Shown piece by piece: positions 35,746 through 62,302 of a DNA stretch of 64,000 bases; within the stretch, counting starts at the first letter, position 1, and every line of letters starts with the position of its first letter. The notes below the pieces were generated by a model that had not been told where the DNA came from, made no database searches, and saw nothing but the letters and a program-made list of their open reading frames with translations. Origin of the DNA: a virus. Lineage: Duplodnaviria > Heunggongvirae > Uroviricota > Caudoviricetes. The stretch spans positions 103,062-167,061 of IMG/VR virus record IMGVR_UViG_3300020576_001727. One strand, 5' to 3'. The position numbers and the translations under genes are program-made.

Positions 35746-35748
35746 TGT

Positions 35749-36049: not shown

Positions 36050-36058
36050 ATTAATTTA

Positions 36059-36105: not shown

Positions 36106-36194
36106 GGAGTGCAAATAAGGGTTGCTGGTGCAGCCGCCGAGTTGTAGCCTCGGTCCTTAATGGCAGGAGATTCGATTTCGTCCATTCCCCACCA
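36104..36194 (+). tRNA. type II tRNA-Tyr (GUA)
   Basis: 88 nt, acceptor ggggagt/attcccc, AC ccgag-ttgtagc-ctcgg, variable arm, CCA. Confidence 0.45.
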
Positions 36195-36202
36195 ATAAAT
36201 AT

Positions 36203-36276
36203 GTCCTCATAGCTTAGTGGCAAAGCGGGCGCTTGATAGGCGTTTGACCTTAGTTCGATTCTAGGTGGGGACACCA
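36203..36276 (+). tRNA. tRNA-Ile (GAU)
   Basis: acceptor gtcctca/tggggac, D-stem gctt/aagc, loop ttgatag, CCA. Confidence 0.5.
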
Positions 36277-36291
36277 ATTCAAGATTGCTGA

Positions 36292-36981
36292 TTGATGTAT
36301 TTTACCATCTATAAAATAACGAATAAAATCAATGGTAAAACTTATATCGGAAAGCATCAAACCGAAAATTTAAACGATGGTTACTTCGGTTCCGGTAATG
36401 GAATAAAATACGCCATTGCTAAATATGGCAAGGATAACTTTGTCAAAGAAATTCTTCATGTTTTTGACAATGAATCCGATATGAACGCTAAAGAAGCTGA
36501 ATTAGTTACCGAAGAATTTTGTAAACGTTTGGATACTTATAACATCATGACCGGTGGTTATGGAGATTTTAATTTCATAACTCCTGAAGAAAGAACAAAA
36601 AATGCTAAAAAGGGTATATCTTGTTTGAATAAAAAATTGGATTCGGACCCAATGTTCCGACAACAATTTTATAAAAAACGAACTGAAGCAATCAGAAATG
36701 TCGATTGGTCATCAATCAATTTGATTGGAAGAACTCATACAAAAATATCCAAAGATAAAATGAGGGAAAAGGCTCTTGGTAGAAAACGTTCCGAATTGTC
36801 TATAAAATTTCAGAAAATAAATTCATTAGGTGAAAAAAATTCTCAATATGGGACTCGTTGGTCTTGGATTACAGATGGCCAAACGAACAAAAAAGTGCCA
36901 TATTTAGAGGATAAGGATATTCCAGAAGGCTGGAAAAGAGGAAGAAGTCGGACAGGACAACTAGTGGAGTCGTTCGCTTGA
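36292..36981 (+). CDS. GIY-YIG homing endonuclease
   Basis: YFTIYKITNKINGKTYIGKHQT; paralog of 30755 gene. Confidence 0.65.
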   Translation: MMYFTIYKITNKINGKTYIGKHQTENLNDGYFGSGNGIKYAIAKYGKDNFVKEILHVFDNESDMNAKEAELVTEEFCKRLDTYNIMTGGYGDFNFITPEERTKNAKKGISCLNKKLDSDPMFRQQFYKKRTEAIRNVDWSSINLIGRTHTKISKDKMREKALGRKRSELSIKFQKINSLGEKNSQYGTRWSWITDGQTNKKVPYLEDKDIPEGWKRGRSRTGQLVESFA

Positions 36982-37023
36982 CATGCGAAAGATGGTAGGC
37001 GCGAAACCTACGTTCGACACCAT
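36969..37023 (+). pseudogene. tRNA 3'-fragment-like element (T-arm-like hairpin + acceptor-like + ACCA) overlapping GIY-YIG stop
   Basis: gtagg-cgcgaaa-cctac gttcgac a cca. Confidence 0.3.
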
Positions 37024-37030
37024 TTAGAAG

Positions 37031-37059
37031 TTGACATGGAGAGTAAAATTAGGTATATT
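37031..37059 (+). promoter_or_regulatory. promoter TTGACA-N17-TATATT
   Basis: read directly. Confidence 0.5.
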
Positions 37060-37169
37060 GAATCATCGAAATCTATGAAGGTTGGTGATATGATTTGCCA
37101 GATTGGTTTTTATGTATCTGTCGCTTTTATTATATGTATCATTTTGGGAATTATGTGAAAGGATTTGAA

Positions 37170-37310
37170 ATGGCTTGGTATTTGTATGGTATTGGCGCTG
37201 CTTTGATATCAATTTCGATTGGTTTGGCGGCTGGTTTCGTTCCTTTTCTTGCTGCATTAGGATTTTCGGCACTTGTCGCCGGTTTTCTTCATGCGATTAT
37301 AAATAGTTAA
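37170..37310 (+). CDS. 46-aa small membrane protein
   Basis: RBS aaagga; single long hydrophobic stretch. Confidence 0.4.
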   Translation: MAWYLYGIGAALISISIGLAAGFVPFLAALGFSALVAGFLHAIINS

Positions 37311-37313
37311 TTT

Positions 37314-37388
37314 GGGCTGTTGGTGATAATGGGAGCATCCCGCACTTGCAATGCGGGGGAGACGGATCGTAACCGTCACAGTCCACCA
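37314..37388 (+). tRNA. tRNA-Ala (UGC)
   Basis: acceptor gggctgt/acagtcc (G3-U70), AC ccgca-cttgcaa-tgcgg, CCA. Confidence 0.55.
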
Positions 37389-37395
37389 AGTTTAA

Positions 37396-37468
37396 TGCGG
37401 GGTAGTAGAAGTTAGAACGCCGGTCTTTGAAACCGGAGATACTGGTTCAAGTCCAGTCCGCGCAGCCA
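37396..37468 (+). tRNA. tRNA-Gln (UUG), U1-A72
   Basis: AC ccggt-ctttgaa-accgg, T-arm actggttcaagtccagt, CCA. Confidence 0.5.
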
Positions 37469-37479
37469 ATTTTAACAAT

Positions 37480-37570
37480 GGTTCCATAGCATAAAGGTAA
37501 TGCGCCGAGCTTATACCTCGTTACTCCTGATTAGAGGGTGATACAGGTTCGAATCCTGTTGGAACTACCA
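37480..37570 (+). tRNA. type II-length tRNA (88 nt), anticodon candidate UAU; identity uncertain
   Basis: acceptor ggttcca/tggaact, D-stem gcat/atgc, 21-nt variable arm, T-arm acaggttcgaatcctgt, CCA then T9 run. Confidence 0.45.
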
Positions 37571-37585
37571 ATTTTTTTTTATTTT

Positions 37586-37978
37586 ATGTTGTTGATAGAA
37601 GAATATATTAAAAAATCAATAGAAGATCGCCAAAAACATCTAGATTTACAATCTGAATGTGATGAAAGGGGCGGATTTTCTTCTTATTATAAAGGATTAA
37701 TGGCATATTATCTTGACACAACAATTCCTTCCGGAAATCGTATTTTAGTTTGTCATGCTTGCCATAATTCAAAATGTAGTAATCCAAAACATTTATATTT
37801 TGGAACACCAAAAGAAAATGTAGCAGATATGAAATCTGTAGGTAATTTTAAAAATGCGTGGCAAGCTAAAGTTGATAAATATGGTCATGATGAAGCACTT
37901 AAAATGGTCCGAGAACATTTGAATAAAGTAAGATATCTAGGAACCATAGCTTCGCCAGTAACTAAAAAAAGAAAATAA
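37586..37978 (+). CDS. HNH (His-Me finger) endonuclease
   Basis: ILVCHACHNSKCSNPKHLYFGTPKEN. Confidence 0.55.
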   Translation: MLLIEEYIKKSIEDRQKHLDLQSECDERGGFSSYYKGLMAYYLDTTIPSGNRILVCHACHNSKCSNPKHLYFGTPKENVADMKSVGNFKNAWQAKVDKYGHDEALKMVREHLNKVRYLGTIASPVTKKRK

Positions 37979-37985
37979 ATTTTAT

Positions 37986-38060
37986 TCCCCGTTCGTCTAA
38001 CGGTAGGACCACACGCTTTGAACGTGTCCAATGGAGGTTCGAATCCTTCGCGGGGAGCCA
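37986..38060 (+). tRNA. tRNA-Gln (UUG) second copy
   Basis: D-arm gtctaacggtaggac, AC acacg-ctttgaa-cgtgt, CCA. Confidence 0.5.
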
Positions 38061-38068
38061 AATCATGT

Positions 38069-38142
38069 TTCCGAGTCGTCTAGTGGTAGGACGTTTCTCT
38101 CTGAAAGAAAAGACGGTTGTTCGAATCAACCCTTGGAAGCCA
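38069..38142 (+). tRNA. tRNA-Gln (CUG)
   Basis: acceptor ttccgag/cttggaa, AC tttct-ctctgaa-agaaa, T-arm ggttgttcgaatcaacc, CCA. Confidence 0.5.
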
Positions 38143-38292
38143 AATTTAGAAAGAATTTGTAATGAACGAAATCAATTTGACAGGTAATTGGCAAAAAACC
38201 CCTTGGTATTTCACTCTGTTTGGCTTTTCTGCCAAACGTCGCAAAATTCATCACTCCAAAAATCCAGAACTTTATGTATGGGAATATCAGTA

Positions 38293-38700
38293 ATGGCATA
38301 TAGACTTTACATCATCATGCGAACTGATATGGCTTCAATGAACGCTGGTAAGGCGATGGCACATGCTGCACATGCCGCCAATGATTTCGAAGACAGAATT
38401 CAAAAATACATCAAGAAACATGATGAAGATGAATGGCTTGTCAATCGTTATCTAGACTGGAAAGAAGATCGTTCGTTTGGAACGACTCTTGTTTTTGGCG
38501 GAAAAGAAAATGATATCATGACCGTAACAGGATCACATTTCGAAGATGGTATGTCCGGTCTTGTGATCGATCCTACTTATCCAATTCGTGATGGTGAAAT
38601 CGTTCATCATATCAGTATCATGACTTGTGGTTGGGTCTTCTGTGATGAAGACGAGTGGAAATCCAATCCAAACGCGGCTTCTCTGTCGCTTCATCCTTAG
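38293..38700 (+). CDS. peptidyl-tRNA hydrolase, Pth2 family-like
   Basis: IIMRTDMASMNAGKAMAHAAHAAND resembles Pth2 motif (RTDL.MGKGK.AAQ..HA). Confidence 0.45.
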   Translation: MAYRLYIIMRTDMASMNAGKAMAHAAHAANDFEDRIQKYIKKHDEDEWLVNRYLDWKEDRSFGTTLVFGGKENDIMTVTGSHFEDGMSGLVIDPTYPIRDGEIVHHISIMTCGWVFCDEDEWKSNPNAASLSLHP

Positions 38701-38711
38701 TTCAAAAAATC

Positions 38712-38785
38712 GCCCCTATCGTCTAGTGGTAGGACATTAGATTCTCAATCTAAAGGTGTCGGATCGTAACCGACTAGGGGAACCA
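38712..38785 (+). tRNA. tRNA-Glu (CUC), G1-A72 mismatch
   Basis: D-arm gtctagtggtaggac, AC ttaga-ttctcaa-tctaa, CCA. Confidence 0.45.
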
Positions 38786-38828
38786 TTTCTCTCTTGACAT
38801 TTCCTTTCGCTTCCATTAAGTTATTAGT

Positions 38829-39278
38829 ATGACAAAGATTGAAGATCATATTCGAACCGAAATCGAAATGTGGGCAAAGGTCGGGCATCCTGCATTGATG
38901 CAGAAGTTCATTCTTAACGAAGGTCGCCTTTTCGAAAATCCGGTTGCCGCCAAGAAGTTTGGCAAGCAGAAGGAATGCTTCAAGAATGCATTCCATTATG
39001 CGCAAGATGAAGAAGTTGAATATGTAGAAGGTTATATTCTTTTGCCAAACATTCCAATTCTCATTCATCATGCTTGGTGCTGCGAATTTGGCGATACCGT
39101 TCCGATTGAAACCACGATCAAGGATTTCGAGGGAATTCAGTATTTTGGTTTTGAATTCGATTATGAAACCGTCGTCGCCTATTTGATCAAGCATGGTGTT
39201 TATGGCATCATTGATCCGGGTTTTGGTCTGAACATCGATTTGTTCAAGAGATATGGAATGGAGATATCGGATGGCTAA
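38829..39278 (+). CDS. hypothetical protein
   Basis: ORF track; TTGACA promoter at 38785. Confidence 0.4.
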   Translation: MTKIEDHIRTEIEMWAKVGHPALMQKFILNEGRLFENPVAAKKFGKQKECFKNAFHYAQDEEVEYVEGYILLPNIPILIHHAWCCEFGDTVPIETTIKDFEGIQYFGFEFDYETVVAYLIKHGVYGIIDPGFGLNIDLFKRYGMEISDG

Positions 39279-39495
39279 GTTTCGAGTTCTTTATCGTGAA
39301 TCTGAACGTGGGTGGGGAACCAAGCTTTTCTCTGGCGTTGAACGCGATTATTTGGCAGAAGCACAAGCAGAATTTTCCAAGTGTAATGCTGAAAATTTTG
39401 CCGATTATGCCAAGACCGCACAAGTTCCCGATTACTATATTCAGCCGGAAGGCATTGAAACCCTTGTCGAAGGTAAATGGATAAGGTATTCGTGA
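39253..39495 (+). CDS. hypothetical protein
   Basis: ORF track. Confidence 0.35.
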   Translation: MEWRYRMAKFRVLYRESERGWGTKLFSGVERDYLAEAQAEFSKCNAENFADYAKTAQVPDYYIQPEGIETLVEGKWIRYS

Positions 39496-39671
39496 TGTTA
39501 CATAAATTGAAAGAATATGCGGTTGATAGAGAATTGATCGCAAAAGCCGCTTTAGATAAAAATCTAAGTGAACAGTCTTTTCGACTCCTTTGCACCTTAC
39601 AAAAAGGTGAAATAACAAAAGAAGTTCAAGATTGGGTGGATTTCGTCATTTTGTCAATTACCAAAGGATGA
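39477..39671 (+). CDS. hypothetical protein
   Basis: ORF track. Confidence 0.3.
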   Translation: MDKVFVMLHKLKEYAVDRELIAKAALDKNLSEQSFRLLCTLQKGEITKEVQDWVDFVILSITKG

Positions 39672-39675
39672 TAAT

Positions 39676-39864
39676 ATGCATCTGATCATTGGAGCATATC
39701 TATTCCTTGGCGGAATCTATTCGGCTTGGTCGCTCAAATGGACCAAAAAGAATTTTGAACAGTTCAAGGATTATTTCTGGCATGTGGTTCTCACAACCTT
39801 CCTTTGGCCATTGTTTGCCTTCAAGGATGGTATCTTGAAACTCTATGACATGGTGTTTGGATAA
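39676..39864 (+). CDS. small membrane protein
   Basis: hydrophobic, W-rich. Confidence 0.35.
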   Translation: MHLIIGAYLFLGGIYSAWSLKWTKKNFEQFKDYFWHVVLTTFLWPLFAFKDGILKLYDMVFG

Positions 39865-40256
39865 TGGCATATTGGATTCCGAAAAAAGATTGGGCTGAAT
39901 GGATAGAAACCCACCAAAAAATGTCTGATTTTTTTGGTATTAAAAAACCATTTCGAGAAGCATCGAAAAGCTTAAAAGATATTGTCCTGTTTTTTGAAGA
40001 GAATTCTTTTCAAGATAATAAATTTACAAAACAGACGATTGGTTACAATTGGTTGTATTGGGCGATAGAATCAATTTATGAAATGCTTTCTAAAGAGAAA
40101 GAATCATATGATAAGCTGGTTGATCGACTCGATTCGATGTCTGGATGGCTGAATTCCAAGGAAAATCAACAGGTTTTGGAAGCCAAGGTAAAGAGTCTGG
40201 AATCCACGGTCGAACGTCTCGAAAAAAAGTTGGCACAATTCGAAAAAAGCGATTGA
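39864..40256 (+). CDS. hypothetical protein with C-terminal coiled coil
   Basis: ORF track. Confidence 0.4.
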   Translation: MAYWIPKKDWAEWIETHQKMSDFFGIKKPFREASKSLKDIVLFFEENSFQDNKFTKQTIGYNWLYWAIESIYEMLSKEKESYDKLVDRLDSMSGWLNSKENQQVLEAKVKSLESTVERLEKKLAQFEKSD

Positions 40257-40348
40257 CTTGGGAACCGAAACGTCCTATATTAAGTTTGTAAGCAGGAAAG
40301 AGAAAACAGCGGAGACAAAAAAAATGTAACCGAACCTCAAAAAAACTC

Positions 40349-40377
40349 TTGACAAAGAGAGATAGATAGAGTAGAAT
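40349..40377 (+). promoter_or_regulatory. promoter TTGACA-N17-TAGAAT facing ORF-free region
   Basis: read directly. Confidence 0.5.
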
Positions 40378-41167
40378 TTAAAAATAGAAACGATCTAGAC
40401 AAGAGAGTAAAGCAATGGCTAGAGACTCGCCCTAGAAAGTAACTTAAAGCCTCAAAGAGGCAACTTAGATAGAGATATTAGATATAGTATGTTAAAATGA
40501 AACTTGGTTTACCGATGGAGCGAAGTTGGGCAATGTCAATAAGTCCCGCCAGCATAGAAGTCGGACCAACGAGAGAAGAACGTTAACTCGCTAAATCAAC
40601 GTGACAGTCCGGAGAGACGGACACTTTAATTCAATGAAAACAAGAACAGTCCTGTCCTGAAAATAGCTCTAAGACATGATAATATTGGATATCTGCTTGT
40701 TTTCATTTAATTAAAGATTGGCGTGTATGGCGTCGTCAGAATAAGGTTGGCAACAACCCCAACGGGAAAAATCTCACGATATCCCACCTAGCAATAGGGT
40801 CAACCATGCAAGCCTCCCCGGTCTGGTAACAGATGTTTCGCTGATAAGAGCGGCGGAACGAACGAGGAAGCCGATGTAGTGGAAAGAACCTTCGTTTAAG
40901 CGCCCGCAAGGGAAACGCAAGCGAAGGGAAAGTAACGGGTGGTGCCGACTTCACTACAAAACCAATCGGTCATTCGGGACGGGAAAGGGTAGGGTATTTG
41001 TCCGAGTCTTACAAACAAGGGCTTATATCCAGTCTGATAGGTCGGTGGTAACGAAACGCTGGTCTTGAAAGACCGCTAAGTAGTCGGTAGACAAAAGGCA
41101 TGAAGGCGTGTTGTATTTTGGTTCCCAAAAGGAATTGAAGCAACAGGGGCAGCACGTCTCGGTGAGT

Positions 41168-41237
41168 TAGCAAGTAGCTCAATGGTAGGGCAATCGCATT
41201 TGAAGCGATGACTGTTGGTTCAATTCCAACCTTCATA
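41168..41237 (+). tRNA. tRNA-like element (UUG anticodon arm atcgc-atttgaa-gcgat, T-arm gttggttcaattccaac) without pairing acceptor
   Basis: hand fold. Confidence 0.3.
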
Positions 41238-41572
41238 TAAAAAAGCAAAGACTGTCCCAGTTGATGGTGAAAATGGTTTAATACTACACTCGAAAGAGAA
41301 TGTAGTTACAAAAAGTCCGCAAGACAATTTGTATTTGTTTTAGAAATTTCGTAACAACTTAGCGGTTGTGAATGGTTCGCAAGATCAGCGGGAAAGAAGA
41401 AACAGAGTAGCTATCAGCGATACGAGAAACGCGACTCGTCAAACGCAACCATGATGTTGTAGAAAGATACCGAAAGGATTTTTCTGGATATGGAAGGAAA
41501 GCAGTCCGCAAAACTGCCATAATCTTCTTAAAGCAGCATTGGTAAACGTGTAATCTCAACGTTTTACAATAG

Positions 41573-42515: not shown

Positions 42516-43088
42516 ATGATTTTTTCACGTAATGAATTGGTTGAATTGTCCAAGGAAGTTGCAATTGTTAATGAAAAATGGAATATCGATCCCGTCACTG
42601 GACTGAAGAAAGAACCTGTAATGGGTAGATGTCTTATGTTGATTGTTTCCGAACTTTCGGAGGCATTAGAAGGCATTCGAAAAGATTTATGGGATACACA
42701 TTTACCCCATAGAAAAATGGAAGAAGTTGAAATGGCGGATGCATTGATTCGTCTTCTTGATTTTGTAAATCGTTTTGATATCGATATTCTCGCAGACATA
42801 AAAGAAATTCCTTCTGATATATTTGAGAATAATCCATTCTCTAGTAATACTAAAGAAGAAAATTTATTTGAAATTGTTGGTGAATTGAGTAATTTAAATC
42901 CATATCAGATGGATGATGAATGGTGGATGAATACTAATACTATTTACGCGATTACCAGCGTTTTACAATATTGTCGTGATTGGAATCTCGATCTTCGCGG
43001 TGCTGTTCGCGAAAAGATGGAATACAACAAAAATCGCGAAGATCACAAAATCGAATCTCGTTTGGCAGAGAACGGAAAAAAGTGGTGA
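42516..43088 (+). CDS. MazG-like nucleotide pyrophosphohydrolase
   Basis: EExxE-type motifs VSELSEALEGIRK, EMADALIRLLD. Confidence 0.55.
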   Translation: MIFSRNELVELSKEVAIVNEKWNIDPVTGLKKEPVMGRCLMLIVSELSEALEGIRKDLWDTHLPHRKMEEVEMADALIRLLDFVNRFDIDILADIKEIPSDIFENNPFSSNTKEENLFEIVGELSNLNPYQMDDEWWMNTNTIYAITSVLQYCRDWNLDLRGAVREKMEYNKNREDHKIESRLAENGKKW

Positions 43089-43653: not shown

Positions 43654-44289
43654 ATGATCAATTTCTATTCAGGAGGCGCGGAAGGTGCGGATTGTGTATT
43701 TGGCAATCTGGCATTGTCTCTAGGGCACCACGTCACTCATTTTTCTTTCAAAAATCACAAGGGTTTCATGGCAGATCGAAAGTATGCCTTGGAGTTGACT
43801 CATGATCAGTTGAAAAAAGCAGATTCTTCTCTAATTCGAGCAAATCAAACTCTCGGGAGAAGTTTTCCTAGTCAAAATCATGGGGTTAATTGCCTCCTGC
43901 GAAGAAATTATTATCAGGTTTTGAATACCGATGCTGTTTTTGCGGCTTGCTCATTCGAGAATGTTGATTCTTTGTTCGCGTCCGAACCAAAAGGCGGCAC
44001 CGCATGGGCAATTCAGATGTTCATCGATAGAAATTTCTATGATGCGACTCAAGATGTTGTCGGATTGACCAAACTTCCGTTATTTATTTTGAACACCAAG
44101 ACAAATCAATGGTATGAGCATAATTCGACATATCCTTGCACTTCCAGCAAGGGAAAGTTGATTTCGATCTATGAAAAGATGATCGATCCTCCTAAAATTC
44201 TGAATGAGGATGGAAAAAACTGGACAGGAATCGGCACAAGAGAGTTGACTCATGCCAATGAACAGGCTATCATGTCTCTAAATAGTTGA
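43654..44289 (+). CDS. hypothetical protein, possible SLOG/Rossmann-like nucleotide-binding (GGAEGAD)
   Basis: N-terminal FYSGGAEGAD. Confidence 0.3.
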   Translation: MINFYSGGAEGADCVFGNLALSLGHHVTHFSFKNHKGFMADRKYALELTHDQLKKADSSLIRANQTLGRSFPSQNHGVNCLLRRNYYQVLNTDAVFAACSFENVDSLFASEPKGGTAWAIQMFIDRNFYDATQDVVGLTKLPLFILNTKTNQWYEHNSTYPCTSSKGKLISIYEKMIDPPKILNEDGKNWTGIGTRELTHANEQAIMSLNS

Positions 44290-49674: not shown

Positions 49675-52209
49675 ATGCATAATTTTTACACCAACGTTCA
49701 AACCCATTTCGGGAAAATCCTCTTTCGCGGCGTCATGAACGGTAATCGAGTTTCCAAGAGATTCGATTACCGTCCTTGTTTGTTTGTTCCCGACGAAGCA
49801 GGAGAGTATCAGACGATCAAGGGAAAGTTCTGTGCCAAGCGCGAATTCTCTCGAATTTCGGAGGCACGGAAATTCATTCGAGAAATGGGAGAAATTCCCA
49901 ACTTTCCAGTCTATGGAATGCGTCGTTTCGAATATCCGTTCATCAATGAACATTTCTCGGAAGATATCAATTTCGATATCAACAAAATTCTCGTCGCTCG
50001 AATCGATATCGAAGTCATGTCCGACAACGGCTTTCCAGAACCGGAACGCGCCGATGATGAAATTACCGCCATCACAATCAAGCTGAACAATCACATTCAT
50101 GTTTTCGGAATTAAGCCGTTCATCCATGAACGGAAGGATTTGACGTATTATAGATGCGCTGATGAAATCGAATTGATTGAAAAATTCATGTCTCTCTGGA
50201 CTTCGGACCATCCCGATATCGTGACAGGATGGTTTATCGAAGGATTCGACATTCCTTACCTGATCAATCGTATCGGCAAGGTAATGGGCGAAGATGTAAT
50301 GAAGAAGCTGTCGCCGTGGGGAGAGATTTCGGAAAAAACCAATTTCTTCAAGGGGCGTGAACAGAAGACATACAACATTCTTGGAGTCGCCATCCTCGAT
50401 TCTATCGAACTCTATAAGAGATACAGTCCCAAGGGAATGAGTCAAGATAGTTATGCCTTGGATAATATCGGCTTGGTTGAATTGAAAGAAAGAAAGACCG
50501 ACTATTCGGCATATGGCAATCTGAACGATCTTTATAAGAAAAATCCACAACTCTATTATGAATACAACATTCAAGACGTTGAATTGGATGAAAAAATTGC
50601 CAAGAAATATGACGTGATCCGTCTCGCCTTGACCATCGCTTACATGAACAAGGTTAATTACGAGGATATTTTCAAACAGGTTCGTATGTGGGCTGCAATT
50701 GTCGATAGAACTTTGTTGGAAAAAAAGATTGTTCTTGATCATAACCTTGATACCAGTCGCGGTCAATATTCGGGCGGGTTCGTCAAGGAACCGGTTCCGG
50801 GAATGTATGACTGGATTGTCTCATTCGACTTGAACTCTCTTTACCCTCACTTGATTATGCAATATAACATTTCCCCGGAAACGCTGGTTGAACCAAGCGA
50901 ATATACGCCGGGAATGCGTTCCATCCTGAACCAATCCATTAGCGTTGAACGGCTTTTGGAAAAAGGCGTCGATACGTCCAAGTTGAAAGACGAAGGCGTG
51001 ACACTCACTCCAAACAAGCAACTGTTTCGAACGGACAAGCGCGGGTTTTTGCCGGAAATCATGCAGAAAATGTATGATGACCGTAAAAAATACAAGAAAA
51101 TGCAGATCGAATTTTCCAAACAAGCGCAAGTTGCCAAGACCGAAACGGAAAAGGAACGTCTTAAGGACGAATCAGCCAAATATAAGTCGATTCAGGAAGC
51201 TTTGAAGGTATGTCTCAATTCGGCTTACGGTGCTTTGGGTTCGGAATATTTTGTCATTTATGATACTCGGATGGCGGAAGCTATTACGTCTGGCGGTCGC
51301 CTGTCAATCCAATGGGTGGGCAATGATATCAACCAAAATCTGCAAAAACTGACAAAGACAACCGACGATTTTGTTCTTGCCCAAGACACAGATTCTATGT
51401 ATCTCGTTTTGGAGAAAATCGTCAACGTCGCATTTGAAGGAAAAAATCCAAGCAAGGAAAAAGTTGTTGATTTTCTAGATAAAATCTGCGAAGATACTAT
51501 TCAGAAGATGATTGATAAATCCTTCATCGAATTGAAGGATTATCTAAACGCATATGAACAAAAAATGTTCATGAAGCGGGAAAATATCGCTTCGATGGGT
51601 GTCTGGACAGGAAAGAAACGCTATTTCCTGAATGTCTATGATTCCGAAGGTGTTCGCTATAAAAAGCCGGAAATCAAGATCACTGGACTAGAGCCGGTTC
51701 GATCTTCGGTTCCTATCACCGCTCGAAATGCGATGAAAAAGTGCTATAAAATCATCGCAGAGAAGAACCAAATCAAGCTGCACAAGTTCATCGCTCGAAT
51801 CAAGCGAAACTGGCACAAAGCCGATTTGAATCGAATTTCGTTCCCTGTCGGTGTCAATGGGTTGGATAAGTATTCCGATCACAAAACAATTTGGTCGAAA
51901 GGAACTCCTGAACACGTTCGCGCCTGTCTGATCTATAATCATCTGATCAAAGAGAACGGCTTGGACAAGAAATACGAAACCATCAAAAACGGCAATAAAA
52001 TCAGATATGTCTATATGAAAGAACCAAATCCTTTGAGAACAGACGTGATTGCCTATGAAAAGACACTCCCAACCGAACTGGAAATAAGACAACATATTGA
52101 TTATCGAGCGTGTTACGAAAAGGCGTTTGGTAAGCCAATGGACGATCTTCTCTCCAAATTCGGCTGGACTTCCAAGAAAACCAACTCACTCGATAAATTT
52201 TTCATGTAA
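49675..52209 (+). CDS. gp43: DNA polymerase, family B (T4 gp43-like)
   Basis: exo motif DIEV, DLNSLYPH, KxxxNSxYG, YGDTDS-type LAQDTDSMY, KKRY. Confidence 0.85.
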   Translation: MHNFYTNVQTHFGKILFRGVMNGNRVSKRFDYRPCLFVPDEAGEYQTIKGKFCAKREFSRISEARKFIREMGEIPNFPVYGMRRFEYPFINEHFSEDINFDINKILVARIDIEVMSDNGFPEPERADDEITAITIKLNNHIHVFGIKPFIHERKDLTYYRCADEIELIEKFMSLWTSDHPDIVTGWFIEGFDIPYLINRIGKVMGEDVMKKLSPWGEISEKTNFFKGREQKTYNILGVAILDSIELYKRYSPKGMSQDSYALDNIGLVELKERKTDYSAYGNLNDLYKKNPQLYYEYNIQDVELDEKIAKKYDVIRLALTIAYMNKVNYEDIFKQVRMWAAIVDRTLLEKKIVLDHNLDTSRGQYSGGFVKEPVPGMYDWIVSFDLNSLYPHLIMQYNISPETLVEPSEYTPGMRSILNQSISVERLLEKGVDTSKLKDEGVTLTPNKQLFRTDKRGFLPEIMQKMYDDRKKYKKMQIEFSKQAQVAKTETEKERLKDESAKYKSIQEALKVCLNSAYGALGSEYFVIYDTRMAEAITSGGRLSIQWVGNDINQNLQKLTKTTDDFVLAQDTDSMYLVLEKIVNVAFEGKNPSKEKVVDFLDKICEDTIQKMIDKSFIELKDYLNAYEQKMFMKRENIASMGVWTGKKRYFLNVYDSEGVRYKKPEIKITGLEPVRSSVPITARNAMKKCYKIIAEKNQIKLHKFIARIKRNWHKADLNRISFPVGVNGLDKYSDHKTIWSKGTPEHVRACLIYNHLIKENGLDKKYETIKNGNKIRYVYMKEPNPLRTDVIAYEKTLPTELEIRQHIDYRACYEKAFGKPMDDLLSKFGWTSKKTNSLDKFFM

Positions 52210-54918: not shown

Positions 54919-55208
54919 TCGATGAAGCAACCGATAAGGCGTTTGATCGTTACAGAGACATGTTGACAAACAGGGGTGTTCATCCTTATAATCATGCTGA
55001 TAAGGATTTTTCCAAGCTGACTCGAAAAGAGCAATTGGAACACGCATATTGGATGTGTGATGAAGTTTTGAAGTTGGAAAATCGTCATTGGTCTGTGGAT
55101 AAGCGCCATAGATGGCTAGGATTCTGTCAAGCTGTTTTAATTATAAATGGACTCACGACAATCGAAAAAGAGCGCAATATAACAAGACCTTGGTTTAATC
55201 CTCAATAA
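54912..55208 (+). CDS. hypothetical protein
   Basis: ORF track. Confidence 0.35.
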   Translation: MVIDEATDKAFDRYRDMLTNRGVHPYNHADKDFSKLTRKEQLEHAYWMCDEVLKLENRHWSVDKRHRWLGFCQAVLIINGLTTIEKERNITRPWFNPQ

Positions 55209-55870
55209 TTTCCCTTGCCATATAATCTCGCTTTGCGTAAATTTTCTTTGTGTTCTTCTGAAAATTTCATGCCTTTTCTGCTTTTTGATATTTTGTCTTT
55301 GTGTTCTTGGGAATATTTTTTGTTTTTATGAGTCAATGAAATTTTCATTCGTCCTTCTAATGTAAAAATCCTTTTGACCGTTCTTGCATTTTCTGTGAGT
55401 TTTGAAATAGTTTCTTCCGAATGTTTTTTACCAGTTAGAGATTTTCGAATTTTTTCTTTGGTTTCTGTCGAATGGTTAATTTTTTGTTTGGCTCTGGCTT
55501 CTCTAATTTTTTGTTTGGTTTCTTCCGAATGTTTCTTACCTAACATATTTTTGTTTCCGTAAGGAATTGAATAGAAATTTGTTTGTGTGATGCATTGATT
55601 AATATACATAGAATTTTTATGCACTTGAAATGCCAACTGAAATTTCTTTTCTTTGTTATTAGCTTCTTCTTTGCTGTTATGATAACTTAGAATGGTTGTT
55701 TTAAATAAATGTGGGTTTTCTTTTAATTCGGCTTTCCATATCGATTGATATAATTTAGATTGGACCGAACCATGATAACCCTTTTGGATTCGTTTAATGT
55801 AGGTGTGGCCAATATAGAATGGCGGCATTTTGTTTCCTGTATATACAGTAAGATATGTGCAGTATGTCAT
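55202..55870 (-). CDS. GIY-YIG homing endonuclease with NUMOD3 repeats
   Basis: PPFYIGHTYIKRIQKGYHGS; repeats GKKHSEETKQKI. Confidence 0.6.
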   Translation of the reverse strand: MTYCTYLTVYTGNKMPPFYIGHTYIKRIQKGYHGSVQSKLYQSIWKAELKENPHLFKTTILSYHNSKEEANNKEKKFQLAFQVHKNSMYINQCITQTNFYSIPYGNKNMLGKKHSEETKQKIREARAKQKINHSTETKEKIRKSLTGKKHSEETISKLTENARTVKRIFTLEGRMKISLTHKNKKYSQEHKDKISKSRKGMKFSEEHKENLRKARLYGKGNY

Positions 55871-55903
55871 TTCTAATCCTAACTAACTAGTCTATTTATT
55901 GAT

Positions 55904-56371
55904 TTGGATATTTATATGAAGGTTTTGTTTTTGGATTGTGACGGCGTTCTTAACTCGAATCGATCCGGCTCTTTCCTTGCCTTGTCGAAACCCGCTTTGC
56001 GTCGTCTGGAAAGAATCGTCAAGGAAACTGGTTGTAAGATCGTCCTTTCTTCGACTTGGAGAAAAGACGAAAGAGCATTTCGCCGCTTGACTCGCGTATT
56101 GTCTTATCGTGGTTTGTCGATCTTTGATAGAACTCCTGTCATGTGGAAAAATGACCAAACAGGAGACAGATATTTTCGCGGTCATGAAATCCAAACGTGG
56201 TTGGACAATCATCCGGAAGTTACCGAATATTGCATTGTTGATGATGATGGTGACATGCTGGATTCTCAATTGCGAAATTTTATCCAAACCACGATGGAAC
56301 ATGGCTTGACAGATACCCATGCATACCGTATAATTTACATTCTGAATAATGGACCTAGAAATATAACATGA
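55904..56371 (+). CDS. HAD-superfamily phosphatase (polynucleotide 3'-phosphatase-like)
   Basis: motif I FLDCDGVL, motif II SSTW. Confidence 0.45.
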   Translation: MDIYMKVLFLDCDGVLNSNRSGSFLALSKPALRRLERIVKETGCKIVLSSTWRKDERAFRRLTRVLSYRGLSIFDRTPVMWKNDQTGDRYFRGHEIQTWLDNHPEVTEYCIVDDDGDMLDSQLRNFIQTTMEHGLTDTHAYRIIYILNNGPRNIT

Positions 56372-57006
56372 AACTAATAGCAATTGGCGATATTCATGGT
56401 TGTTTGGATGAACTTATCGAACTGTATGACAAGATCATTGGAGAAATTGGCAATGAAGATGCCAAAATCATTTTCCTTGGTGATTATGTTGATCGCGGTC
56501 CTAACGTCAAAGGCGTCTTGGATTTCTGCATGTCTTTGCGGAATACCGACAACATTCAACACGTCTTCCTAATGGGTAATCACGAAGATATCTTGCTGAC
56601 TACGGTTTATGCAGACATTGCAGAGGCAACGTATCGTAGCTTCGGTGTGAACAATGGAGACGGAATTCCTTTTGAGTATCGAGTATGGATGCAGAAGCTT
56701 GGATTGATTCATACTCATGGTCGCTATGTGTTTGTTCACGCCGGGATTGATCCGAGTATTGCCGATATTTATGATCAAAGGGGATTAAATCTGCTTTGGA
56801 CTCGTGATTTTGACGGTTATAAAGGCGATTATGAAGGCGGCTGGTTTGTTGTGCGCGGTCATACTCCCGTATTTGATGGACCGATTGTGACCAAAAACCA
56901 GATCAATCTTGATACCGGTTGCGTTTTTGGTGGAAAATTGTCGGCAGTTATTATTGATGAAAATCAAGGGTTTGTAAAATTTCTGGACGTAAAATCAAAA
57001 AAGTGA
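56368..57006 (+). CDS. PPP-family Ser/Thr phosphatase / ApaH-like metallophosphoesterase
   Basis: GDIHG, GDYVDRG, GNHE motifs. Confidence 0.6.
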   Translation: MKLIAIGDIHGCLDELIELYDKIIGEIGNEDAKIIFLGDYVDRGPNVKGVLDFCMSLRNTDNIQHVFLMGNHEDILLTTVYADIAEATYRSFGVNNGDGIPFEYRVWMQKLGLIHTHGRYVFVHAGIDPSIADIYDQRGLNLLWTRDFDGYKGDYEGGWFVVRGHTPVFDGPIVTKNQINLDTGCVFGGKLSAVIIDENQGFVKFLDVKSKK

Positions 57007-57016
57007 CAAAACCCCA

Positions 57017-57045
57017 TTGACAAAAAGAATGAAATCTCCTAAATT
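57017..57045 (+). promoter_or_regulatory. promoter TTGACA-N17-TAAATT
   Basis: read directly. Confidence 0.5.
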
Positions 57046-57105
57046 GTATTTGTGACGTTGAGGGAAATGGTTCCCCGACAAAAACCTGAAAATGGAGAAG
57101 TGAAA

Positions 57106-57201
57106 ATGGCTAAGGTTCAGAAGCGCGGTCGTCCCGCCTACCAGTATGTTCCGACTGCCAAGGGCAAGGCGCTGGTTACTCTCGCTAAGCAGTGGCAGTA
57201 A
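57106..57201 (+). CDS. 31-aa basic peptide with AT-hook-like KRGRP (MAKVQKRGRPAYQYVPTAKGKALVTLAKQWQ)
   Basis: RBS ggag; promoter upstream; terminator hairpin downstream at 57273. Confidence 0.35.
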   Translation: MAKVQKRGRPAYQYVPTAKGKALVTLAKQWQ

Positions 57202-57272
57202 CAAGAAAGGGTGTGTCTCTGAAGTAAGACACATAAAAACCAAAACGTTTGTATGGCGTGAGTAGTTTTTAG

Positions 57273-57306
57273 ACCGGGAAAGGTTCGTCCTTCCCGGTCT
57301 TTCCCT
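57273..57306 (+). terminator. hairpin agaccgggaaagg...ccttcccggtct followed by T-rich
   Basis: read directly. Confidence 0.45.
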
Positions 57307-57325
57307 ATAAAATGAAAGGAAATCA

Positions 57326-57778
57326 ATGAGATACGTTAAAGGCAATTTGGTTGATGCGAAAGAGCGAATTATTGCGCATGGTTGCAATTCCCAAGGTAAA
57401 ATGGGTAAAGGTGTCGCTCTTGATATCAAGAACAAATGGCCATTAGCTTATCAGCTTTATGTAAACCGACACAAGGTCCGTCCTCTTAAGCTAGGAGAAG
57501 TCGTTTCGGCACCAGTTGATGATAAAATCATTTGTAATCTTATTACACAAGAATTTTATGGATATGGGAGACGGTTTGTGAACTATGCCGCTATCCTTGT
57601 TTGTCTCGATAAAGTCGCTCTTGCTTTCGAAGGTGTTGGTGCGCCTACTGGCGAGATAGCAATTTCCAAAATCGGTGCGAAAAATGGCGGTGGTGACTGG
57701 AAAATCATCGAAACCATGATTCTTGATCTGGAAAGAATGAGAAATGTGGAGTTCGTTATTTACTCTCTTGACAACTGA
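57326..57778 (+). CDS. macro domain protein (ADP-ribose binding / ADP-ribosylhydrolase-like)
   Basis: IAHGCNSQGKMGKGVALDI matches macro N-terminal motif. Confidence 0.5.
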   Translation: MRYVKGNLVDAKERIIAHGCNSQGKMGKGVALDIKNKWPLAYQLYVNRHKVRPLKLGEVVSAPVDDKIICNLITQEFYGYGRRFVNYAAILVCLDKVALAFEGVGAPTGEIAISKIGAKNGGGDWKIIETMILDLERMRNVEFVIYSLDN

Positions 57779-57817
57779 TATTTTCCTGCTTACGATGTGA
57801 AAATCAAAACCCAATGA

Positions 57818-58126
57818 ATGGAATTTGAAATGAAAGATAATATTTTGGAAGTTATGGTTAATGCCATTACCGAAACCAGAGCCGTTTTGACGGAAATGGA
57901 AACAGCCGACGAGCGCGCTGTTGTCGATTCCGACTTTATTATGTGTGCTTATGGCAACGCTGTTTTGGCGCTTCGATTGAGTCTTGTCTATATGGCGGAA
58001 AATCCGGAAGCTCTAGCTGCCTATGCAGCCGATGGCTTCAAATCTTGGACAGATGACATGATCGAGAAATTCGACATTATGGTTGTCGGAACCGAAAAGA
58101 CTGTCCCTAACCCTTTCAAAAAGTGA
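57818..58126 (+). CDS. hypothetical protein
   Basis: ORF track. Confidence 0.4.
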   Translation: MEFEMKDNILEVMVNAITETRAVLTEMETADERAVVDSDFIMCAYGNAVLALRLSLVYMAENPEALAAYAADGFKSWTDDMIEKFDIMVVGTEKTVPNPFKK

Positions 58127-58132
58127 TTTCTC

Positions 58133-58567
58133 ATGAATTTGAAACTGTTTGATCGTCGTCGTTACGTTTTTGATGATGATGATCTTTTCTCCCATTCTCA
58201 CGAACCTGATGAAGAATCCCCAACCTTCCCTTGGTGGAAGCCACGTTGGAATGGTTCTGCATGGGAATTTGTAAATCCCAACGGCAAGGTTCTGGATACG
58301 ACTCGTCTCTATTCGACGCTCTATCCAACCTACTCGAAACTTATGCGGGAAGGCGCGGAATACGAACACTCTCCCAAGTTTTTTGTTGATTGGGCGAAAA
58401 AGATCGTGTATTATATGTCTTGCGTCGTATATACGGAAGCCGAACGAGAGAATCAGGCGGCTATCCCAAAGGGTCTTTCTCCAAAGGAAGCAACTAAAGC
58501 TTCCAAGGAAGCAGATCGAAAGACCGAAGCAACCGTTCAGGAATTTTTCAACTCTTTTAAGGAATAA
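58133..58567 (+). CDS. hypothetical protein
   Basis: ORF track. Confidence 0.4.
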   Translation: MNLKLFDRRRYVFDDDDLFSHSHEPDEESPTFPWWKPRWNGSAWEFVNPNGKVLDTTRLYSTLYPTYSKLMREGAEYEHSPKFFVDWAKKIVYYMSCVVYTEAERENQAAIPKGLSPKEATKASKEADRKTEATVQEFFNSFKE

Positions 58568-59053: not shown

Positions 59054-59662
59054 ATGCAAGAAAAATTGATACTTACAGACTGTGACGGGGTTTTGCTTGA
59101 TTGGGAGCGTGGTTTTGAAAATTGGATGGCTGAAAAAGGCTATGTAAAGCTTCCCGATTATGACATGAAAGCCTATTCATTAAGCATTCACTATGGAATT
59201 CCCAAGGAAGAAATTAAGCATCTGATCAAACAATTCAATGAATCGGCTGCAATCGGTTATCTTGAACCATATCACGATGCCCATGAATTCATTCCTAAAT
59301 TTTGGGAATTTGGATATGATTTTCATGTGATTACGTCTTTGTCCCATGACAAACATTCCAAGATGGCGAGGATCGACAATCTCAATCGAGAAATTCCGAG
59401 TTGGGATCATGATGGCTATTTTTGGGAAAAAAATGTAACCTGCCTTGATGTAGGAGCCGATAAGGATTCGGCGTTGTTGCCTTATAAGGACACCGGGCTT
59501 TGGTGGATCGAAGACAAGTATGAAAACGCAATGGCTGGTTTCAAGCTTGGTCTTAAGCCTTTGCTTTTGGTGCATGATCATAATGGCCATATCGAAACGC
59601 CGTTTCCCAAAGTGAAGAACTGGAAAGAGATTTATGAAATCGTTACAGCTTCCGAAAACTAA
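59054..59662 (+). CDS. HAD-family hydrolase, 5'(3')-deoxyribonucleotidase-like
   Basis: LILTDCDGVLLDWE motif I. Confidence 0.45.
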   Translation: MQEKLILTDCDGVLLDWERGFENWMAEKGYVKLPDYDMKAYSLSIHYGIPKEEIKHLIKQFNESAAIGYLEPYHDAHEFIPKFWEFGYDFHVITSLSHDKHSKMARIDNLNREIPSWDHDGYFWEKNVTCLDVGADKDSALLPYKDTGLWWIEDKYENAMAGFKLGLKPLLLVHDHNGHIETPFPKVKNWKEIYEIVTASEN

Positions 59663-61102: not shown

Positions 61103-61398
61103 CTGACTTCAGCAATCTTCGACTCAAATATCTGTCCTTGGATGCAGAAGTCCAAGGACACATTCATGCAGGATTGCGTTCCGCTCCTACGTCCAAGGTC
61201 TATAAGCGTTGGTATGAAAAACGCTTGGTCGAACTTCAAGACGCAAGGGACAAGGCAAGGGAAGAATGGCGGAAAGTTGCGCCTCCTGAACCTTCCTATC
61301 GGGACAAGCTGATTATGGCTGCAAATGGCCATGAAGATTTGGAATCGACCAAGGCTGCTAGACGACTTTGTGATAAAAAAGGTTTTAAATATCAATGA
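61099..61398 (+). CDS. hypothetical protein
   Basis: ORF track. Confidence 0.4.
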   Translation: MTDFSNLRLKYLSLDAEVQGHIHAGLRSAPTSKVYKRWYEKRLVELQDARDKAREEWRKVAPPEPSYRDKLIMAANGHEDLESTKAARRLCDKKGFKYQ

Positions 61399-61976
61399 TT
61401 TATGAAGAAGCTTTCAAATATATTTCCAAAAAGTTCAAGACTAATGATTTCTTGATCGCTGGCGGTTCGGTCTATCGAGCATTTCACAGAGAAGATTTTC
61501 ATGCGTCTGGTTCGGACATTGATGTTTTCTTGTCACGTAGCTGTTTCGTGGGTCGCTCCAAATATGATCTAATGACCAAAACAGAAGAATATTTTATCAA
61601 TTCCAGACTAAAGAAATCCAAAGATTACCCCTCCGAATCTTATAAATTTTTCGATTCCCATCTTCGGAAAAATATCGAATATATCGTGATCGATGACAAT
61701 GTTTTTGATAAAGGAAATATCATCAAGCATTTCGACTTGAATTGTTCTCGTTACTATTGGAATTCTGCCAAGGAAGTCATCGAAAACGAAGACCCTTATC
61801 CAAATGAAATCGCAATCATGAAGCTTAAACCCGGATATACCTTTCAGAAGTTGTTCGAAAGAGTTTCAAAATATCGCCAGATCATGCCTAAAGCAGTCGT
61901 TTTCCGAGTTGAACCGGAATTGACTGTTACTATTACTAATGAAAAACCCAAGAAAAACATAATAGATGGTTATTGA
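61395..61976 (+). CDS. hypothetical protein
   Basis: ORF track. Confidence 0.4.
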   Translation: MIYEEAFKYISKKFKTNDFLIAGGSVYRAFHREDFHASGSDIDVFLSRSCFVGRSKYDLMTKTEEYFINSRLKKSKDYPSESYKFFDSHLRKNIEYIVIDDNVFDKGNIIKHFDLNCSRYYWNSAKEVIENEDPYPNEIAIMKLKPGYTFQKLFERVSKYRQIMPKAVVFRVEPELTVTITNEKPKKNIIDGY

Positions 61977-62302
61977 TGGAAACGACGAAGCGTGATGAAC
62001 GATTGAAACATTGTCCGCATTGTGGACCATTTCAAAGCTACTGTGACGTGGTTCAATCCGATATCAATCACAGATGGCAGGTTTTTTGTGGGCGTTGCGG
62101 TTCATCTTCGGGATCGTGCAGGACAGAAGACAAGGCAATTGAATTGTGGAATCAACGTCCTGTCGAGAATTTGGCGATTGCTGAATATGCCAACATGATG
62201 ATTGCTTATGAAAATTGCAATCCGGAAGTCGGTTTTGGACCATCCGATTCATATATTCGAGAAAAATGCGAAAAATACATCTTGACGGATGCGTGGCGAT
62301 AA
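61973..62302 (+). CDS. C4 zinc-ribbon protein
   Basis: CPHC...CGRC. Confidence 0.4.
   Translation: MMETTKRDERLKHCPHCGPFQSYCDVVQSDINHRWQVFCGRCGSSSGSCRTEDKAIELWNQRPVENLAIAEYANMMIAYENCNPEVGFGPSDSYIREKCEKYILTDAWR

Follow-up and report, generated by a model that had tools for sequence, protein, structure and literature searches.

What would a tailed phage gain from a short run of genes in which two phosphatases stand next to a macrodomain protein? The question is raised by positions 55904-57778 of a 64,000-nucleotide stretch of viral DNA (IMG/VR record IMGVR_UViG_3300020576_001727, positions 103,062 to 167,061; Caudoviricetes), referred to here, at its full length, as the window. A sequence-only reading had placed four open reading frames (ORFs) there on the plus strand, for a HAD phosphatase, a PPP-type phosphatase, an AT-hook-like peptide and a macrodomain protein, and had proposed that they form a joint counter-defence module. 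All four ORFs are present at those positions on that strand, and the HAD, PPP-type and macro assignments are correct, as seen in Pfam matches to HAD_SAK_2 and Metallophos and in profile and model evidence for the macrodomain (coordinates in Table 1). A counter-defence role is plausible; that the genes make up one module is the less likely reading.

The interpretation that we favour, and to which we give about even weight, is that the cluster is an accessory island of early genes for separately acting enzymes that would directly reverse nucleic-acid damage inflicted by the host. Two units may be distinguished. The first would couple, at the level of translation, a HAD_SAK_2 phosphatase (ORF-A) with a metallophosphoesterase that resembles lambda phosphatase and CthPnkp (ORF-B), with RNA 3'-end healing as its probable role. 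The second is a stand-alone macrodomain of the SCO6735/Bt_1257 type (ORF-D), which would act, much as an orphan antitoxin does, as an ADP-ribosyl hydrolase on nucleic acid.

A coupled pair of phosphatases

The three enzyme genes can be compared with those of a sister contig (L020, from Logan SRR17591873) that is collinear with the window at 82-94% DNA identity. Between the two, the ratio of nonsynonymous to synonymous divergence (dN/dS) takes the values 0.07 (HAD gene), 0.21 (metallophosphoesterase gene) and 0.06 (macro gene), and these low values, a mark of purifying selection, argue that all three are functional genes.

The ORF-A frame opens with a TTG (55904-56371), and its probable start is the ATG at 55916, the codon that gene callers chose on contig L016 and on L020. 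The protein matches HAD_SAK_2, described in Pfam as the 'HAD domain in Swiss Army Knife RNA repair proteins', at E 4.7e-31 and 108 bits (cut-off 27.5). Residues D7, D9, G10, S46, R88, D109 and D110 are invariant across 45 sequences of its family and the HAD motifs are intact, R88 being the probable motif III residue. A structure model built with database homologues (predicted local distance difference test score, pLDDT, of 95) has a capless HAD fold, to which the nearest solved folds are MDP-1, UBLCP1, Scp1, HisB-N and GmhB. Among the HAD cap classes, capless enzymes typically act on macromolecular substrates. By its strong Pfam match, ORF-A is a stand-alone phage form of the 'Swiss-army-knife' HAD of phage and bacterial RNA repair, whose activity as an RNA-end phosphatase is a prediction of the Aravind group (PMC7824862, PMC9503650).

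In the window as in L020, the start of ORF-B overlaps the stop of ORF-A by four bases (ATGA). ORF-B has matches to Pfam Metallophos (1.9e-18) and to phrog_246, 'NinI-like Ser/Thr phosphatase' (1.7e-45); its motifs GDIHG (GDxHG), GDYVDRGP (GDxxDRG) and GNHE, together with H124 and H165, are invariant in 40 homologues. Its best match in the PDB is 4J6O, the 2',3'-phosphatase domain of C. thermocellum Pnkp, with 63 bits for the single sequence and 123 bits for a 40-member profile, which also finds lambda phosphatase (1G5B) at 105 bits and ApaH-like proteins at 80-95 bits. Nine residues that are invariant in the family, D8, H10, D39, R43, N71, H72, H124, H165 and D182, match D187, H189, D233, R237, N263, H264, H323, H376 and D392 of CthPnkp, all of them essential for its phosphatase activity (PMC3675462). 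The CthPnkp module and lambda phosphatase are thus the closest solved relatives, with binuclear-metal and phosphate-binding residues identical in ORF-B, and both are 2',3'-cyclic phosphodiesterase/phosphomonoesterases. Lambda phosphatase, the physiological substrate of which is unknown, hydrolyses phosphoproteins as well as 2',3'-cyclic phosphates (PMC3675462), so that the substrate of ORF-B is not fixed by its sequence alone.

In the mechanism proposed here, ORF-B would open the 2',3'-cyclic phosphates that terminate RNAs cut by defence ribonucleases, for example anticodon nucleases, ORF-A and ORF-B would then strip the resulting 2'- or 3'-phosphates, and the healed ends would be sealed by an RNA ligase encoded elsewhere, in the phage or in the host. 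The two phosphatases had earlier been named as possible processors of ADP-ribose or nucleotide signals, a role that finds no support in a capless HAD of the Swiss-army-knife type, in a partner resembling CthPnkp and lambda phosphatase, or in neighbours such as RNA ligases, Thg1 and metallophosphoesterases in related loci; they appear better explained by RNA 3'-end healing. If so, the pair would constitute a kinase-independent RNA 3'-end-healing unit, and would account in part for the ability of phages rich in tRNA genes to survive defences that cleave RNA.

The partnership of HAD and metallophosphoesterase recurs outside the window. A survey of 82 HAD_SAK_2 loci (66 groups after dereplication, 8 kb flank) found a metallophosphoesterase nearby in 14 groups, in 4 of them as the direct neighbour; RNA ligases and ADP-ribose-linked genes each occur in 9 groups and Thg1 in 4, all neighbour counts given here being raw, with no proper null model behind the enrichments. 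On the contigs examined, the metallophosphoesterases that flank HAD_SAK_2 fall into four different families, and in one locus (L172) a PPP-type enzyme overlaps the HAD gene in the reverse of the order in the window. The loci of the closest HAD relatives read Gad2-HAD (L185), MPE-HAD-YAcAr(SLOG)-x-30.3 (L186) and MPE-HNH-HAD...YAcAr (L187), MPE standing for metallophosphoesterase. The small metallophosphoesterases that lie beside macro or HAD genes elsewhere were considered as orthologues of ORF-B and rejected, as they belong to different families, which supports an analogous rather than an orthologous partnership. Single-sequence scans of IMG/VR returned only distant HAD loci, none with a metallophosphoesterase or macro gene nearby.

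Two further neighbours of HAD_SAK_2 genes may be recorded. The closest HAD_SAK_2 relative (75% identity), in L185, has a direct overlap with a strong Gad2 homologue, and in phage RB16 the HAD_SAK_2 homologue adjoins two genes annotated as 5'-3' deoxyribonucleotidases.

A macrodomain of the glutamine type and the NADAR slot

ORF-D scores 21.5 bits against Pfam Macro, just below the cut-off of 22. The assignment is secure in spite of this, because PF01661 is carried by nearly all of its homologues at 35-51% identity; because the family profile finds in the PDB Bt_1257 (100 bits, 1e-27), SCO6735 (91 bits, 6e-25), DarG (77), TARG1 (70) and Poa1p (69); because the DarG model of PADLOC matches at 2e-17, over its macro part only (positions 3-144 of 329); and because an AlphaFold (AF2) model with a pLDDT of 90 superposes on Bt_1257, DarG, SCO6735, Poa1p and TARG1 with a Foldseek probability of 1.00 and template modelling (TM) scores of 0.79-0.84. 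The family occurs in at least 895 sequenced phage records, and many phage homologues are annotated 'Appr-1-p processing'.

A profile search for the catalytic residues of the macrodomain had been suggested as a check; the profile evidence supports the macro assignment, and H18, G19, C20, N21 and T74-Q75 are invariant among the 24 family members. In the alignment to 5E3B, residues H18, N21, K28 and Q75 of ORF-D correspond to H24, N27, K34 and Q85 of SCO6735, position 28 being Ser in most of the macro family. N21 aligns with the active-site Asn of TaqDarG (N22), and Q75 sits at the position of the catalytic Lys in DarG (K80) and TARG1 (K84). The mobile loop after Q75 runs 11 residues to Y87, against 13 in SCO6735 and 10 in DarG, and holds the basic residues R82 and R83. 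SCO6735 acts through Gln85 (Q85A is inactive), Asn27 and Lys34, and loses its dT-ADP-ribose hydrolysis when the counterparts of H18, N21 or Q75 are mutated; it strips the thymidine-ADP-ribose made by DarT from DNA more efficiently than DarG does, and it rescues cells from DarT (PMC9411070). The missing DarG/TARG1 lysine, taken for a time as evidence against DNA de-ADP-ribosylation, was dropped as an argument on this account, SCO6735 being highly active on dT-ADP-ribose with a Gln at that position.

Three groups of macrodomains bear comparison with ORF-D. SCO6735 (from Streptomyces coelicolor) and Bt_1257 are its best sequence and fold matches (TM 0.80-0.84) and, like it, they are stand-alone proteins of about 150 residues with no DarT-binding domain and with Gln replacing the DarG/TARG1 Lys (PMC9411070). 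They differ in that identity is only 25-28%, in that ORF-D has a loop two residues shorter and a Lys119 for Gly128, and in that ORF-D is phage-encoded. AdfM (PhiKZ gp104) is a phage stand-alone macrodomain that removes DarT2-made ADP-ribose from DNA and a proven anti-DarTG2 factor (PMC13309987); ORF-D is likewise a phage stand-alone protein, keeps the catalytic Asn and matches the PADLOC model of DarG, whereas the catalytic Lys (K78 in PhiKZ AdfM, K80 in TaqDarG) is Gln75 in ORF-D (PMC13309987). DarG2 itself carries a C-terminal DarT-binding domain and is paired with DarT. Both are missing from ORF-D, and no DarT match was found among ten neighbouring proteins scanned with PADLOC. The third is yeast Poa1p, an ADP-ribose-1''-phosphate phosphatase that shares with ORF-D its ALC1-like macro fold, has a comparable HxCN...GxG motif and ties the macrodomain to by-products of RNA repair. 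It scores lower against the ORF-D family than Bt_1257 and SCO6735, and no 2'-phosphotransferase is seen in the context of ORF-D.

On this comparison ORF-D is a good candidate for an enzyme that reverses DNA ADP-ribosylation of the DarT type, using the mechanism of SCO6735 and not that of DarG, and its target would most likely be the thymidine-linked ADP-ribose placed on phage single-stranded DNA by DarT2-type toxins. That the macrodomain might undo modification of the DarT type had been suggested from the sequence, and the idea is reasonable, because SCO6735 removes DarT-made thymidine ADP-ribose from DNA; the NADAR gene of the sister contig and the AdfM precedent speak for it as well. If it holds, Gln-type macrodomains would form a second, mechanistically distinct class of phage anti-DarT2 proteins beside the Lys-type AdfM.

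In L020 a gene for a 142-residue NADAR protein (PF08719; L020 4359-4805) lies immediately upstream of the HAD gene. It aligns to 55201-55910 of the window, where a homing endonuclease gene stands in its place, and no NADAR was detected anywhere in the 64-kb window, either by six-frame searches with local hidden Markov models (HMMs) or by alignment to L020. Phage NADARs such as AdfN (T4 gp30.3) are proven anti-DarTG1 orphan antitoxins (PMC11825919). They share with ORF-D the concept of an orphan-antitoxin-like hydrolase that T4-like phages deploy against DarTG, and one lies in the very same cluster of L020; they differ in fold and in their specificity for guanine-linked ADP-ribose, and in the window the gene was either lost or never present. 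The comparison reveals a presence/absence polymorphism of a likely anti-DarT1 gene, one that is apparently linked to homing-endonuclease activity. In the sister phage, the NADAR enzyme would complement the macrodomain by acting on guanine-linked ADP-ribose, and the alternation of NADAR and homing endonuclease offers a natural experiment on the gain or loss of anti-DarT1 capacity.

One module, two units or chance

How the cluster is transcribed bears on whether its genes act together. Putative promoters were located by a consensus scan against the sigma-70 motif, which found two 12/12 matches (TTGACA-17/18-TATAAT) against about 0.002 expected by chance in 5 kb, by our own estimate, and a third, weaker site before the small ORF. 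Such density suggests an early-promoter architecture. The site at the 3' end of the HAD gene keeps its -10 element in L020 and differs by one base in the -35 element, a conservation that is ambiguous because the site overlaps coding sequence. The hairpin before the macro gene was missed by the terminator scan because its T-run is short; at the same position L020 has a canonical stem with a T-run terminator. With separate promoter-like sites and this hairpin, the cluster resembles a row of early genes, each with its own promoter, and not a single operon.

The small ORF upstream of the hairpin had been read as an AT-hook-like peptide. Its KRGRP motif is there, but comparison with L020 and a further contig (L022) identifies the ORF as the derivative of a 153-bp in-frame deletion between two direct repeats coding KRGR(G)RP; the full-length form, of 82-83 residues, carries both motifs (L020 5998-6249, L022 376-624). 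The remnant matches phrog_26287 weakly (0.006), and the full-length protein has no significant relative in the PDB or among phages. Its sole PDB similarity, to an Lrs14-like regulator, is non-significant at E 1.3 and places KRGRP in a segment similar to the wing of a winged helix. The motif may thus be more like such a wing than like an AT-hook, and the AT-hook reading finds no support.

The divergence between the window and L020 is a mosaic. Positions 57306-58566, which hold the macro gene and the two genes of unknown function that follow it (ORF E and ORF F), are 94% identical, with a synonymous divergence (dS) of 0.08-0.14 in the macro gene and ORF F and of 0.44 in ORF E between them. The HAD-metallophosphoesterase block (55910-57132) is 82.6% identical, with dS of 0.7-0.9. 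This pattern points to a recent exchange of the macro block.

A second survey, of 85 macro loci (78 groups after dereplication, 8 kb on either side), shows a recurrent link of the macro family to genes of RNA repair, NADAR and NAD+ metabolism. An RNA ligase of the Rnl or RtcB type is found in 16 of the 78 groups and within 2 kb in 11, against roughly 3 expected by chance on a rough estimate of our own; HAD_SAK_2 is found in 10 groups, a metallophosphoesterase in about 14, the peptidyl-tRNA hydrolase PTH2 in 8, and NADAR or the T4 30.3 protein (AdfN) in 13. Genes for NAMPT, NMNAT(-Nudix) or PRPP synthetase occur in 14 groups (NAMPT in 13, NMNAT in 6) and SLOG/DrHyd-like genes in 17. RNA-repair-type genes are present in 36 of the groups and absent from the other 42. 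Contiguous sets include macro-metallophosphoesterase-RNA ligase (L054), macro-RNA ligase (L068) and macro-HAD-NADAR (L115), and the NAMPT gene overlaps the macro gene in L018, L103 and L104. The first of these three loci belongs to Rhizobium phage RHph_I1_18, in which the macro orthologue directly follows the NAD+ salvage genes for NAMPT and NMNAT-Nudix. On contigs of two further T4-like lineages (L023 and L024) the macro gene lies about 1-1.5 kb downstream of NAMPT/NMNAT-Nudix, adjoins a nucleoside deoxyribosyltransferase-like gene and is near a DNA ligase gene; L023 also carries gp30.3/AdfN.

Several observations weigh against the interpretation as two repair units. The exact trio of HAD, PPP and macro genes is confined to the lineage of the window, most macro and HAD loci are without these partners, 26 of the 85 macro loci lack any of the first 11 families scored, and the rawness of the neighbour counts applies to all of these surveys. 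To our knowledge, the activities of HAD_SAK_2, of the ORF-B subfamily and of the phage macro subfamily are all predicted ones. The top fold matches of ORF-A include protein phosphatases. Each of the 120 closest homologues listed for ORF-B is a stand-alone protein, most often under the name 'Ser/Thr protein phosphatase 1', and ORF-B differs from CthPnkp in being lambda-phosphatase-sized, in having no fused kinase or ligase and no Hen1 partner, and in lacking the Cth-specific beta-hairpin and loop (alignment to 4J6O; PMC3675462). In ORF-D, Lys119, shared with the 98%-identical sister protein, stands where SCO6735 has Gly128, the family consensus being Gly with Asp or Asn in some members, and the substitution G128E cripples SCO6735 (PMC9411070). 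The ORFs scanned in the window and the 4.7 kb beyond it include no RNA ligase, polynucleotide kinase, KptA or DarT-like gene, which leaves the proposed healing unit without a visible sealing partner; the Swiss-army-knife HAD systems differ from ORF-A in this respect, for related loci have RNA ligase, Thg1 and metallophosphoesterase neighbours, and no ligase, kinase or sirtuin lies near ORF-A. A six-frame local-HMM search of the window for RNA ligase, NAMPT, NMNAT, NADAR and DNA ligase brought up only a Nudix protein and a second metallophosphoesterase.

The confinement of the trio to one lineage, the separate promoter-like sites and the hairpin favour an island of separately acting repair enzymes over one module. 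The main rival view, that all three enzymes serve one NAD+-dependent pathway of RNA repair, we consider doubtful. ORF-B would open 2',3'-cyclic phosphate to 2'-phosphate, and a KptA/Tpt1-type enzyme or a sirtuin of the host or phage would move the phosphate to NAD+; the by-product, ADP-ribose 1''-2'' cyclic phosphate, would pass through ADP-ribose-1''-phosphate to ADP-ribose by the action of the phosphoesterases and the macrodomain (with NADAR in the sister phage), the macrodomain being a metabolite phosphatase like Poa1p and not a DNA repair enzyme. A model of phage RNA repair from the Aravind laboratory joins KptA, 2H, Macro, NADAR, HAD and calcineurin-like enzymes (PMC7824862, PMC9503650), and the similarity to Poa1p (69 bits; TM 0.79-0.83), the 'Appr-1-p processing' annotation of homologues and the RNA ligase, HAD_SAK_2 and PTH2 neighbours of the macro family also speak for such a pathway. 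The macrodomain is nevertheless nearer to Bt_1257 and SCO6735 than to Poa1p and keeps the Gln and Asn for dT-ADP-ribose hydrolysis; a promoter-like site and a hairpin separate its gene from the phosphatase pair; and neither the window nor the 4.7 kb beyond it yielded a KptA, 2H, sirtuin, kinase or ligase gene.

Less probable still is the role that the sequence-only reading had in mind for the phosphatases, extended to the macrodomain: the degradation of soluble immune signals or toxins derived from ADP-ribose or nucleotides, such as the cyclic ADP-ribose isomers of TIR systems or phosphorylated ADP-ribose, or the feeding of ADP-ribose into NAD+ recycling. It has been argued that phage ADP-ribose-processing domains target mostly soluble derivatives (PMC9503650), metallophosphoesterase-HAD_SAK_2 pairs recur beside ADP-ribose-linked domains (L186, L187), a Macro-HAD-NADAR set exists (L115), and the NAD+ salvage and SLOG/DrHyd-like neighbours of the macro family fit as well. 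Against this, the capless HAD belongs to a type that usually acts on macromolecules, no ADP-ribose substrate is known for either phosphatase family, their nearest characterised relatives acting on RNA ends or proteins, and the window has no PRPP synthetase, nor were NAMPT and NMNAT of the phage NAD+ reconstitution pathway NARP2 met with there.

A more novel possibility, and an improbable one, is that metallophosphoesterase, HAD_SAK_2 and an ADP-ribose-handling domain form one pathway that cleans blocked nucleic-acid termini, which would amount to an undescribed anti-defence mechanism. Such a triad, with Macro, NADAR/30.3 or YAcAr-SLOG as the ADP-ribose domain, is found in the window, L020, L115, L186 and L187. 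The macro or NADAR protein would, for example, remove ADP-ribose from phosphate-linked caps, and the phosphoesterases would strip the 2'- or 3'-phosphate that remains, or a toxSAS-type 3'-pyrophosphate on tRNA.

It is very unlikely that the genes are unrelated accessories of a hyperplastic region, engaged in nucleotide metabolism or housekeeping and without any anti-defence role. The lineage-specific trio, the separate promoter-like sites, the mosaic ancestry (dS of about 0.1 in the macro-E-F block against about 0.8 in the HAD-metallophosphoesterase block) and the phiM12-type phages, which carry both macro and PPP genes some 35 kb apart, speak for such a chance grouping. Yet the partnerships of HAD_SAK_2 with metallophosphoesterase and of macro with NADAR, RNA ligase or HAD recur independently, in varied order and with non-orthologous replacements, two diverged phages share the 4-bp overlap of the HAD and metallophosphoesterase genes, and anti-toxin activity has been shown for close relatives of the macro and NADAR genes (PMC9411070, PMC11825919). 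Just as unlikely is a set of protein-directed erasers for host takeover, in which a NinI/lambda-type Ser/Thr/Tyr phosphatase and an FCP/MDP-1-like HAD would dephosphorylate host or phage proteins, for instance against kinase-based defences, and the macrodomain would remove protein ADP-ribosylation imposed by the host or by phage Alt/Mod-type enzymes: for lambda phosphatase itself no physiological substrate is known (PMC3675462), and HAD_SAK_2 has RNA ligases, Thg1 and NADAR for neighbours, not kinases.

Under the interpretation as two separately acting repair units, the cluster is a plausible and fairly ordinary anti-defence toolkit. Every component falls in a described family, and orphan antitoxins and phage RNA repair have both been published; current concepts remain unchanged, and what the locus supplies are testable candidates within known families.

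The surrounding genome

The phage belongs to the T4 superfamily and is rich in tRNA genes. Upstream of the cluster it encodes a gp43-type DNA polymerase (49675-52209; 44% identity to cyanomyovirus polymerases) and, directly before 55904-57778, a UvsX-like recombinase and a DnaB-like helicase. A megablast search of the 55-60 kb region against 50,697 phage records gave no match, leaving the phage without a close cultured relative. Past the end of the window, contig L019 adds only a homing endonuclease, DUF6267 and proteins of unknown function.

Table 1. Positions of the cluster genes, putative regulatory sites and other annotated features of the window
Feature	Position	Strand	Remarks
Sigma-70-like promoter	54963-54992	+	12/12 (TTGACA-18-TATAAT); upstream of cluster, inside coding sequence
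GIY-YIG/NUMOD3 homing endonuclease	55202-55870	-	Pfam NUMOD3 1e-9; phrog_314 2e-23
ORF-A, HAD_SAK_2 capless HAD phosphatase	55916-56371	+	151 aa from ATG; Pfam PF18143
Sigma-70-like promoter	56306-56334	+	12/12; within 3' end of HAD gene, 34 nt before metallophosphoesterase start
ORF-B, lambda-phosphatase/CthPnkp-like binuclear metallophosphoesterase	56368-57006	+	212 aa
Sigma-70-like promoter	57017-57045	+	10/12 (TTGACA-17-TAAATT); precedes small ORF; kept in L020
Small ORF, 31-aa remnant	57106-57201	+	likely ATG 57106; GTG ORF from 57052
GC-rich hairpin	57271-57300	+	between small ORF and macro gene; RNAfold -22.7 kcal/mol, 65-nt stretch
ORF-D, ALC1-like macrodomain, SCO6735/Bt_1257 (Gln-type) subclass	57326-57778	+	stand-alone, 150 aa
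HAD + nucleotidyltransferase fusion	12718-14097		nucleotide-sugar cluster
Second calcineurin-like phosphoesterase	14034-14762		nucleotide-sugar cluster
UDP-glucose/GDP-mannose dehydrogenase	16741-17940		nucleotide-sugar cluster
Two NAD-dependent epimerases/dehydratases	17952-19888		nucleotide-sugar cluster
Stand-alone Nudix hydrolase	19885-20331		nucleotide-sugar cluster
Homing endonucleases	28857-29498, 30755-31357, 32642-33196, 36292-36981, 37538-37978		among tRNA genes
SPFH/Band-7 protein	31574-32446		tRNA region
PTH2-like peptidyl-tRNA hydrolase	38188-38700		tRNA region

The 31 tRNA genes lie at 21317-41238, and no fewer than five homing endonucleases are scattered among them. The anticodon call is abnormal in one predicted tRNA (33402-33473), and a tRNA-Ile(tat) at 37480-37570 is of unusual length (91 nt). 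A cluster of genes for nucleotide-sugar metabolism, at 12718-20331, may have a role in DNA hypermodification or glycan synthesis.

Downstream of the macro gene, at 59054-59662, is a second HAD-like protein with the motif DCDGVL (phrog_420, function unknown), and five loci have homologues of it close to the macro family. Positions 61395-62302, 3.6 kb downstream of the cluster, hold a Gad2-like (anti-Gabija) nucleotidyltransferase, recognised by a weak match to PF26128, and after it a Lar restriction-alleviation protein. The window further encodes two MazG-like pyrophosphatases and a DprA/SLOG-like protein (42516-43088, 26951-27586 and 43654-44289), and in other phages SLOG-type genes (DprA-like, cpYpsA, YAcAr) repeatedly adjoin macro and HAD_SAK_2 genes.

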